A stretch of 38,099 nucleotides of DNA, from assembly GCF_003334335.1 (NCBI RefSeq), contig NZ_QOWQ01000042.1; one strand, 5' to 3'. A program made the translations under genes and the position numbers. This document shows, in pieces, positions 35,117-35,652 of the stretch (its first letter is position 1; every line of letters starts with the position of its first letter). Source of the DNA: Escherichia coli (GTDB lineage Bacteria; Pseudomonadota; Gammaproteobacteria; Enterobacterales; Enterobacteriaceae). The notes beneath the pieces are model-generated. The model made no database searches and was not told the DNA's origin. It saw nothing but the letters and a program-made list of their open reading frames with translations.

Positions 35117-35421
35117 TTTAATTAAATAATTAACACCGCAAAAAGTGCCAAAAATCGCAAAATGACTACACCAGTGACTACACCGTTCGGTGCACTGTAT
35201 GAAACAACGTGGAACAAATAGACACAAGAAATATACAGGCGGATCATCTTTCCAGGGGGAAGCGCACCAATTCATGAGGGGCGTTAATGTCGATATGGGG
35301 ATCCCCACCTACCGGAATTTTTTTCCGGTTAAACGTTAATCAGGCTGGTGGGCTTTACCTGTTCGGTAGGTGTTATGATTATCGTAATACCTTTCCCCCA
35401 ATGGGGTAAAAGCATCAACCG

Positions 35422-35652
35422 TAACGAAAGTCGTTATGGTTGCCACTGATACCCCAAATTTGGGTATCACGAGTAAGCCCCAAAATCTGGGTGTTACTCT
35501 TACTACCCAAACTACGGGTAGTTTCCGTAGTTTCATGGTCGAGTTGCAGATCTGCAACTCCCCCATTAACCACAGGCGAATTTCCGCCTTCGGTCATTCC
35601 TTAATCATCTGCGTAATCATAATGATTATTCAGCAAGCGCAATTTTGCGCTT
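35422..35652. repeat. array of short palindromes/hairpins in non-coding DNA next to the tqsA junction
   Basis: taacgaaagtcgtta (35422-35436), cccaaatttggg (35453-35464), cccaaaatctggg (35478-35490), aaactacgg-gtagttt-ccgtagttt (35509-35533), 20-bp perfect palindrome gagttgcagatctgcaactc (35541-35560), aagcgcaa-tt-ttgcgctt (35635-35652). Confidence 0.5.

Follow-up and report, generated by a model that had tools for sequence, protein, structure and literature searches.

A palindrome cluster in the non-coding tail of an Escherichia coli phage satellite: a conserved 123-bp module and its possible role as a 3' trailer and insulator

The palindrome cluster described here lies in a 38,099-nt stretch of Escherichia coli DNA that was analyzed in full (hereafter the window); it is real and constitutes the most hairpin-prone DNA of the window, far beyond what chance would produce. 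It sits in the ~0.7-kb non-coding tail of a capsid-forming PICI, with the gene for a 93-aa protein (phrog_1561) on one side and the att core/attP on the other, and it contains a 123-bp module that recurs in the tails of otherwise unrelated PICIs. The roles of packaging site, operator array and integrase arm site that had been suggested for the cluster are not supported. The reading that we favor, to which we would give a probability of only about one in three, is that the tail might serve as a structured 3' trailer and, at the same time, as an insulator that sets the packaging operon apart from attP/int.

PICIs, including the capsid-forming versions, are intensively studied gene-transfer vehicles, and their published maps show genes only. 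The present analysis shows that hairpin-rich non-coding DNA amounting to 0.4-1.2 kb is retained at one end of E. coli PICIs despite the constraint on their size, and that a 123-bp cassette, conserved beyond the synonymous rate, is found in about one-fifth of complete E. coli genomes.

Genomic context of the palindrome cluster

The right end of the window corresponds to the tqsA side of the E. coli chromosome (ydgD, mdtIJ and the 5' part of tqsA), which is interrupted by a mobile element such that homology to tqsA ends at the att core. An identical sequence in E. coli E110019 (locus L001) reveals an island of ~15 kb (14.9 kb) bounded by a 9-bp direct repeat, TGCTGTTAT. The island codes for a tyrosine integrase, an HTH regulator, Icd-like and DUF4222 proteins, followed by a DUF927 primase, an SSB and PerC, then by the major capsid protein, prohead protease, portal, and head closure and connector proteins, and lastly by HNH, P27-type TerS, TerL and the 93-aa ORF. 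The same gene order is seen in capsid-forming PICIs, as described for EcCIEDL933 (bioRxiv 10.1101/2022.09.08.507074). The mobile element is a capsid-forming PICI, i.e., a phage satellite, of ~15 kb inserted in tqsA, and the non-coding location of the palindromes between the tqsA junction and the last PICI gene, as originally proposed, is borne out.

In the excised circle the operon, the tail, attP and int follow one another in this order, all on the same strand. Read on the minus strand, in the direction of the operon, the 93-aa gene is followed by three box/palindrome units, a G+C-rich hairpin, the 123-bp module, the hairpin HP1, an att-proximal block with Chi, the integrase arm sites and the att core (Table 1). 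Tails of 0.4-1.2 kb are also found across other E. coli PICIs. The 93-aa protein itself has no match in Pfam, NCBIfam or the PDB; its AlphaFold model (pLDDT 62) is too poor for a fold search. A tblastn search of a phage collection with this protein returned a single weak partial match, and a protein-pattern scan of the GTDB species representatives confirmed no relative.

Table 1. Features of the PICI tail and adjoining genes, in window coordinates unless a locus is named
Feature	Position	Strand	Remarks
att core TGCTGTTAT, left PICI boundary within tqsA	35080..35088	.	9-mer repeated at the other end, L001 34891-34899
IHF consensus WATCAANNNNTTR, perfect match next to att core	35106..35118	-	the 38-kb window has 3 perfect matches in all
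Direct repeats TGACTACACC x2, probable integrase arm-type sites	35163..35184	+	same pair beside int, L001 34741-34762
att-proximal block with GGGGATCCCC, CCGGAATTTTTTTCCGG and Chi	35190..35444	.	shared with EcCIEDL933, ~91%
Palindrome GGGGATCCCC	35297-35306
Palindrome CCGGAATTTTTTTCCGG	35312-35328
Chi octamer GCTGGTGG	35344..35351	+
Long hairpin HP1	35402..35456	.	inner 12-bp stem 35416-35427 with 35431-35442; outer stem uses left half of site 1
123-bp module (sites 1-3, GTAGTTTC x2, 20-bp palindrome)	35443..35565	.	~94% identical among otherwise unrelated PICI tails
Site 1 GATACCCCAAATTTGGGTATC, GATACCC-N7-GGGTATC	35448-35468
Site 2 CCCCAAAATCTGGGT	35478-35492
Site 3 ACCCAAACTACGGGT	35505-35519
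Repeat GTAGTTTC x2	35518-35534		inside the 123-bp module
20-bp perfect palindrome GAGTTGCAGATCTGCAACTC	35541-35560
G+C-rich hairpin ACCACAGGCGAATTTCCGCCTTCGGT, containing GGCGAATTTCCGCC	35569..35594	.	related to the terminator-like hairpin after the module in Rpp-type PICIs
Palindrome CTGCGTAATCAT / ATGATTATTCAG	35609..35633	.	also in L004, L010
Three units of 48 nt, each with a short palindrome that varies and a box that is conserved	35632..35830	+	repeats
Palindrome AGCAAGCGCAATTTTGCGCTTTGCT	35632-35656
Unit hairpins	35632-35656, 35686-35698, 35783-35794
Unit boxes	35659-35676, 35707-35724, 35803-35820		box 35803-35820 overlaps stop codon of 93-aa gene
93-aa ORF (phrog_1561)	35815..36096	-	last gene of many E. 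coli PICI types
TerL, large terminase of the cf-PICI packaging module	36110..37771	-	island gene order

Palindromes and predicted folding

A preliminary description of this DNA had listed at least six hairpin-capable palindromes, and every listed element is found in the sequence, including the perfect 20-bp palindrome. The three related CCCAAA..TGGG sites are likewise present, but at a spacing of exactly 27 bp (centers 35458, 35485 and 35512) and not ~25 bp. CCC-N7-GGG sites number five in the 14.9-kb PICI of L001 and two in 20 kb of flanking host DNA. The proposal that such a density is non-random is upheld by a folding scan of all 379 segments of 200 nt, in which 35401-35600 ranked first (z -9.95) and 35301-35500 third. 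The stretch 35390-35600 is predicted to fold into five consecutive stem-loops on either strand, with energies of -88.2 kcal/mol on the plus strand (z -9.7) and -95.9 kcal/mol on the minus strand (z -8.8), both relative to 200 dinucleotide shuffles, none of which equalled the observed energy. The 123-bp module has four nested or adjacent stem-loops. Further, two long-range pairings span the individual palindromes, one between 33-nt arms (35450-35482 with 35488-35520) that are 76% complementary, and the other between 26-nt arms (35402-35427 with 35431-35456). This nested complementarity exceeds the needs of local protein sites. HP1 is kept, with G.T and A.C variants, in L004, L104, L114 and L153.

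Counts of G.U pairs over 15 tails (341 sense vs 307 antisense) reveal no strand bias, and neither these counts nor the folding energies yield a signal by which the tail could be assigned to one strand. As strand asymmetry is lacking in both the G.U counts and the shuffle z-scores, a role at the level of RNA is not distinguished from one at the level of DNA. A scan of 34900-36200 for intrinsic terminators returned none inside 35296-35652 and one weak terminator-like site at the stop codon, and the hairpins of the window's tail are not followed by a proper U-tract on either strand. HP1 together with a GCUUUU stretch was considered as an operon terminator and found unconvincing, the U-tract being sequestered in the next hairpin.

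Several other identities were considered and set aside. The Rfam 15 covariance models gave no match in 34500-38099 even at E<=1, and all matches at the gathering threshold in the window fall at 3290-7807. ORFs running across the module were rejected as coding, with substitutions that are mostly non-synonymous and with both strands "encoding" similar peptides, the latter on account of the palindromes; an in-frame deletion of 9 nt is put down to slippage between the two GTAGTTTC copies. Also rejected were type III antitoxin-like repeats, attC sites and HUH hairpin sites, as partner genes are absent, and att remnants derived from tRNA fragments, as there was no tRNA-like match.

A 123-bp module shared by diverse PICIs

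Comparison of PICI tails shows that the motif conservation anticipated for the cluster holds for a 123-bp core, which is ~94% identical in many PICIs, but that the CCCAAA..TGGG pattern is not the conserved unit and looks particular to the variant in the window. The features conserved in the module are GATACC(C)-N7-(G)GGTATC, AAACTAC/GTAGTTT and GAGTTGCA-N4-TGCAACTC; the half-sites are conserved, and the A/T-rich 7-bp spacer varies in sequence while keeping a fixed length. The most divergent, L005-type variants have lost the right halves of sites 2 and 3. The motifs of the module are absent from the rest of the PICI.

Islands of the DUF1441/Rpp type close to clpS and a circular record of 10.8 kb (L002, L003) are among the carriers of the module, as are L007 and L008, of the TerS + capsid + decoration types, and L006, which is embedded in a prophage terminase gene; the module is common to PICIs that differ in packaging system, att site and primase. 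Matches were recovered from 1,105-1,318 of 5,426 complete E. coli genomes, depending on the query (~20%), and most of them cover the module. On 70 IMG/VR and 65 metagenome contigs it occurs throughout in a single orientation, downstream of the last gene of the PICI, and in 78 loci it is co-oriented with the 93-aa gene, whose stop codon it follows at a distance of 159-893 bp. Nevertheless, only about one-third of the PICIs with the 93-aa gene possess the module. Blastn searches found no match to any phage record in the phage collection and six plasmid records, one match being full-length and the others partial; one of these plasmid records, of 10.8 kb and circular, looks like an excised PICI. 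A complete E. coli genome has a median of one copy, with a maximum of six places, and the exact module pattern has 0 matches in 100,044 GTDB species representatives, on which grounds a REP, BIME or ERIC element was rejected. A full-text literature search found the module sequence in no paper, and the accessible PICI literature makes no mention of hairpins or non-coding features at the PICI end. The tail element belongs to a family that is specific to PICIs and has a conserved core of 123 bp; as a non-coding element it is real, widespread and apparently constrained.

With respect to this constraint, 1,081 pairs of distinct loci were compared by gapped alignment. All locus sets were ascertained through exact patterns inside the module, with the left 57 nt being the unascertained part. 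The divergence of these 57 nt is 0.08-0.085, as against 0.24-0.34 at the 4-fold sites of the adjacent 93-aa gene, i.e., ~4x slower than the neighboring synonymous sites, while that of the right part is ~0.03, a value partly fixed by the search patterns. Such slow divergence indicates either purifying selection or recent horizontal spread, and the two are not cleanly separable since the loci were ascertained by module patterns. Covariation among 49 module variants is limited by their little variation: one compensated pair was found (A-T to C-G in 2 variants, with 4 intermediates), the remaining pairs being invariant or changed on one side only.

The tail as a mosaic of hairpin cassettes

The blocks flanking the module have their own distributions. 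A blastn comparison with L004, an island of the EcCIEDL933 type next to phoQ in O157:H7, gave a match at 35107-35444 (~91% identical), and L004 is without 35445-35657. The att-proximal block is also found in L104, L114, L137 and L153. In Rpp-type PICIs, Chi is on the opposite strand and directly adjoins the module; read along the operon strand of these PICIs, the module precedes a G+C-rich hairpin of 11 bp that has a U-rich tail and is flagged as terminator-like. Where the module is missing, the tails have hairpin blocks of other sequence, among them a canonical terminator, GATGACGTGGCCAACGTCATTTTTT, which is again on the operon strand. The 48-nt units, of which the window has three, range from 1 to 9 copies among PICIs, and their palindromes vary yet pair (GCGC, GCTC/GAGC, ACGC/GCGT, CCTC/GAGG, GTGC/GCAC): 30 distinct unit hairpins comprise 176 Watson-Crick, 9 G.T, 4 A.C and 2 mismatched pairs. 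The breakpoints between blocks are sharp, and the module can be present or absent among close relatives. Comparison of the sequences shows that the tail is a mosaic of short hairpin cassettes that assort independently and are exchangeable. As side observations, one module copy is interrupted by an IS insertion, tandem module copies flank a partial ori in some loci, and Chi sites are found at tail junctions.

This mosaicism invites the explanation that the tail has no present function and is a place, prone to recombination, where old terminators and att-arm remnants have accumulated, in which the module hitch-hikes by recombination between PICIs and the palindromes are the legacy of an inverted duplication. 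The extreme mosaicism with its sharp breakpoints, the presence or absence of the module among close relatives, the tandem copies around a partial ori, the IS insertion in one copy, the Chi sites at junctions and the variation of the units from 1 to 9 copies are all in keeping with this. However, we regard it as unlikely, given that the module is ~4x more conserved than the adjacent synonymous sites, that its orientation is invariant, that stems are maintained through sequence change, and that satellites of 10-15 kb, which are constrained in size, retain 0.4-1.2 kb of hairpin-rich non-coding DNA in every case examined.

IHF-consensus boxes and att arms

The conserved box of the 48-nt units, GAAWATCARCNRGTTASCG, contains the IHF consensus WATCAANNNNTTR, with a perfect match at 35805-35817 and a match with one mismatch at 35709-35721 in the window. 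In EcCIEDL933 the relaxed form WATCARNNNNTTR is matched six times within 400 bp, always in one orientation, where 0.58 matches are expected in 8.5 kb, and a site equivalent to the one next to the att core of the window is present at its phoQ junction. By their match to the consensus the unit boxes are candidate IHF sites; inside 35296-35652 there is no match to the IHF consensus. The TGACTACACC repeats, a pair of which is also found in other PICIs, are probably the integrase arm-type sites. They are better candidates for this role than the palindromes, for which arm-type recombinase binding had been suggested: they lie outside the palindrome cluster, and the palindromes are absent at the int-proximal end.

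These sites raise the possibility that the tail acts as double-stranded DNA, with the palindromes (TACCC-N7-GGGTA, two to three times, and the 20-bp palindrome) serving as sites for a dimeric protein of the PICI, helper or host and, together with the neighboring IHF sites, forming a nucleoprotein structure near attP that might, for example, modulate excision/integration, replication or transfer. Conserved half-sites around a 7-bp A/T-rich spacer that varies in sequence but never in length, the phasing of the sites by exactly 27 bp, the strand symmetry of the palindromes with no G.U bias, and the proximity of IHF-consensus boxes and integrase arm sites are what one would expect of such a platform. 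Additionally, mutation of the "hypothetical gene 1792" severely impairs the transfer of EcCIEDL933 (bioRxiv 10.1101/2022.09.08.507074), and this gene could be the 93-aa gene. On the other hand, no protein is known to recognize the sites, their motifs do not recur in the rest of the PICI, L005-type variants lack the right halves of sites 2 and 3, and the variable palindromes of the units do not fit one sequence-specific binder. Further, the assortment of the module follows neither the integrase/att site nor the primase nor the packaging type, and two-thirds of related PICIs do not have it. We accordingly view a DNA platform as possible but rather unlikely.

Operator, packaging and replication readings

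The operator array that had been suggested for the cluster fails on two counts: the region has no sigma-70-like promoter, and the motifs of the module are found nowhere else in the PICI. The sole sigma-70-like match in a promoter scan of 34900-36200 is at 35219-35247, and the count falls below the shuffle mean.

Of the suggestion that the cluster is a packaging or att-related site, the part that stands is that this DNA belongs to the end of a mobile element; the packaging role is unsupported, as EcCIEDL933, which has been packaged and transferred experimentally (bioRxiv 10.1101/2022.09.08.507074), does so without 35445-35657. The module is therefore dispensable for transfer, a conclusion in line with its presence in about one-third of the PICIs with the 93-aa gene. 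The placement of the region near the terminase genes and att, and the phasing of its repeats, would be compatible with a cos/pac signal or with integrase arm-type sites. However, the module spans PICIs with three packaging types, namely HK97-type, Rpp-type and TerS/lambda-cos, and the TGACTACACC arm repeats are found on both arms, outside a region that starts ~210 bp from the att core. A lambda-like cos was also rejected, with a cosN (GGGCGGCGACCT-like) being found in 68 loci elsewhere and not in the tail: the lambda-cos PICIs have the exact cosN upstream of terS/rpp, and have it again in inverted form ~65 bp ahead of the 93-aa gene, a placement that fits the published cos1/cos2 arrangement (PMC6739421, PMC9026076). 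We hold either of these roles to be very improbable. The HK97-type cos of the cf-PICI has its expected position between HNH and terS, outside the window.

A role in replication was considered in two forms. The cluster is not the origin of the island, since 11 AACCCGCA iterons flank an AT-rich stretch next to the primase gene (L001 28620-28930); the tail in the window has none of these iterons. The alternative is a single-stranded DNA signal or a secondary replication site, akin to P4 crr or plasmid ssi, that would prime or replicate the excised PICI. Strand-symmetric multi-hairpin architectures of this kind resemble signals of the ssi/G4 type, and a partial PICI origin (AACCCGCA iterons plus AT-rich stretch) adjoins the module in L037, L041, L066, L067 and L078, in four of these five loci between two direct module copies. 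Nevertheless, the window has its own origin with 11 iterons at the primase and an iteron-free tail, and the module is common to PICIs with different primases and iterons, making such a signal improbable.

A structured 3' trailer and insulator as the favored reading

The property shared by the tails is a capacity to form hairpins at the 3' end of the packaging operon and not any one sequence, and it is for this reason that we favor a trailer and insulator, while keeping the proposal tentative. Read-through transcripts of the packaging operon would fold into a run of stable stem-loops, which could end or protect the 3' end of the mRNA. In the excised circle, the palindromes and IHF on the boxes might separate the operon from attP/int, and in the integrated state they might separate it from the host genes tqsA and mdtJI. 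Transcription of the region, formation of the hairpins and binding of IHF are steps that we infer. Consistent with such a role, the module is always downstream of the last gene of the operon and co-oriented with it in 78 loci, the stems of the units change in sequence yet keep pairing, and the left 57 nt of the module are constrained relative to the 4-fold sites next door. Against it, the high conservation of the module could reflect recent horizontal spread instead of selection. Our confidence is low because the hairpins have no proper U-tract and no strand preference, the module is too conserved for covariation to be informative, and EcCIEDL933 transfers without it.

The module and the repeats of IHF boxes and hairpins could alternatively represent a dedicated, hitherto undescribed cis-acting element of E. 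coli PICIs, in the form of a structured RNA or a nucleoprotein platform, which we judge to be possible though doubtful. Were it an RNA, it would be a stable, structured species released by cleavage from the 3' end of the transcript of the packaging operon, whereas a nucleoprotein platform might be read by the conserved 93-aa protein together with IHF; in either case it could influence satellite transfer, immunity or the expression of int. A cassette acting in cis as RNA or DNA would be among the determinants of satellite biology, and it would conveniently mark the ends of PICIs. Should it prove to be just a patchwork of terminators and insulators, the result is an ordinary one, yet it corrects the readings as packaging site and arm sites.

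Comparison with known systems

The tail resembles the cos regions of lambda, HK97 and Rpp-type PICIs in being non-coding, in its proximity to terminase genes, and in its repeated candidate sites for proteins, IHF among them (PMC9026076, PMC6739421). Unlike them, it has no cosN-like sequence and lies downstream of terL and not upstream of terS, and its module is missing in a functional cf-PICI and shared across packaging types.

The resemblance to lambda attP, with its arm-type Int sites and the IHF sites H1, H2 and H', is confined to 35106-35184, where an IHF consensus and direct arm repeats flank the core. The palindromes, in contrast, start ~210 bp from the core and reach ~740 bp, far past known attP arms, and the module occurs irrespective of the type of integrase and att. 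The hairpins of the PICI are also comparable to the lambda sib/tI hairpin in being across attP from int in the excised form; however, the geometry of sib-type retroregulation is inapplicable, as the cluster is upstream of int in the circle and not downstream.

A parallel to the cis replication region (crr) of P4 is seen in direct repeats of ~120 bp far from ori in a P4-related satellite. In some PICIs two module copies flank ori-type iterons, whereas the window's tail has a single module copy and no iterons.

The closest parallels are found among the extragenic palindromes of E. coli, RIB/RIP (BIME-1) and REP, which were reportedly described in 1993 by Boccard and Prentki and by Oppenheim and colleagues. 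At the 3' ends of E. coli operons REP and RIB/RIP have been ascribed roles in mRNA 3'-end protection, termination and the binding of architectural proteins. As with these, the PICI tails are extragenic, located at the 3' ends of transcription units, and composed of mosaic arrays of imperfect palindromes with an IHF-consensus site in variable copy number. Their sequence, to our knowledge, is unlike the REP consensus. They further differ in being confined to PICI ends, with a median of one copy per genome as against hundreds, in having co-oriented units as opposed to convergent pairs, and in possessing a 123-bp module that has no counterpart in REP or RIB. While the tail element itself is described nowhere in the accessible literature or Rfam, in kind it resembles the arrays of extragenic palindromes and IHF sites at the ends of operons.

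The satellite inserted in tqsA

The insertion in tqsA is a capsid-forming PICI of about 15 kb, which occupies 35080-38099 and runs past the end of the window; its full extent is seen in the identical sequence of E. coli E110019 (L001, 20000-34900). Its genes include, in order, int, a DUF927 primase and then capsid, protease, portal, HNH, TerS, TerL and a 93-aa ORF, and the 9-bp repeat TGCTGTTAT is found at both boundaries. The origin, an AT-rich stretch amid 11 AACCCGCA iterons, adjoins the primase gene.

Features of the tqsA satellite and of compared PICI loci
Feature	Position	Strand	Remarks
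Perfect match to the IHF consensus	35106-35118		Adjoins the att core
Two direct repeats, TGACTACACC	35163-35184		Second occurrence beside int, at the opposite PICI end
Chi site, GCTGGTGG	35344-35351		Within the palindrome cluster
Tandem 48-nt units, each a variable palindrome and an IHF-consensus box	35632-35830; 4400-4850 of L004 (EcCIEDL933-type island by phoQ)		
93-aa ORF (phrog_1561)	35815-36096	-	Conserved last gene in several E. coli PICI types
cosN, GGGCGGCGACCT (example)	1558-1569 and 2425-2436 of L104 (another PICI locus)	+ and -	

The direct repeats close to the att core are likely to be arm sites of the integrase. A near-copy of the repeat in inverted orientation, GGTGTAGCCA, is also observed at 35772-35781. 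Further, in Rpp-type PICIs, which have a different packaging system, Chi lies on the opposite strand and abuts the module (a conserved 123-bp non-coding cassette), often exactly at mosaic junctions.

Elsewhere in the window, matches above the Rfam gathering threshold at 3290-3968 and 7609-7807 (minus strand) comprise two STnc100 hits, C4 antisense RNA, isrK and c4-a1b1, and these hits suggest that the left part of the window contains an immunity region belonging to another prophage-like element. The 200-nt segment at 8501-8700, between two ORFs, ranked second for structure-proneness (z -8.85).

The last gene and its surroundings

In many loci the exact lambda cosN sequence is present twice, in inverted orientation on either side of terS/rpp, with the second copy preceding the 93-aa ORF by about 65 bp; this pair probably corresponds to the published cos1/cos2. 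The ORF itself lacks Pfam, NCBIfam or PDB matches, recovers a single weak and partial match in the phage collection, and gives a poor AlphaFold model with three helices. Possibly it corresponds to the "hypothetical gene 1792" of EcCIEDL933, whose mutation severely reduces transfer of that island (bioRxiv 10.1101/2022.09.08.507074). Its stop codon is overlapped by the box of the first 48-nt unit, and these units range from 1 to 9 copies among PICIs. A perfect 7-1-7 palindrome, TAATCATAATGATTA, at 35614-35628 looks like a Fur box in which G and C have changed places, and recurs with an insertion in EcCIEDL933.

Composite and duplicated modules

The module is a composite in its own right, since in one metagenome variant an IHF-box unit is joined directly to its right half at TTACTACCC. 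In L078 (reverse strand, about 800) it is interrupted at site 2, one of its palindromes, by an IS903-like terminal repeat. Additionally, L041, L066, L067 and L078 carry two direct module copies 434-436 bp apart, with an incomplete PICI origin copy, made up of 5 iterons and an AT-rich stretch, between them (e.g., L067 941-1500); in L037 (1-230) a partial origin copy adjoins the module. The arrangement of a module pair around a partial origin recalls the cis replication region of P4.
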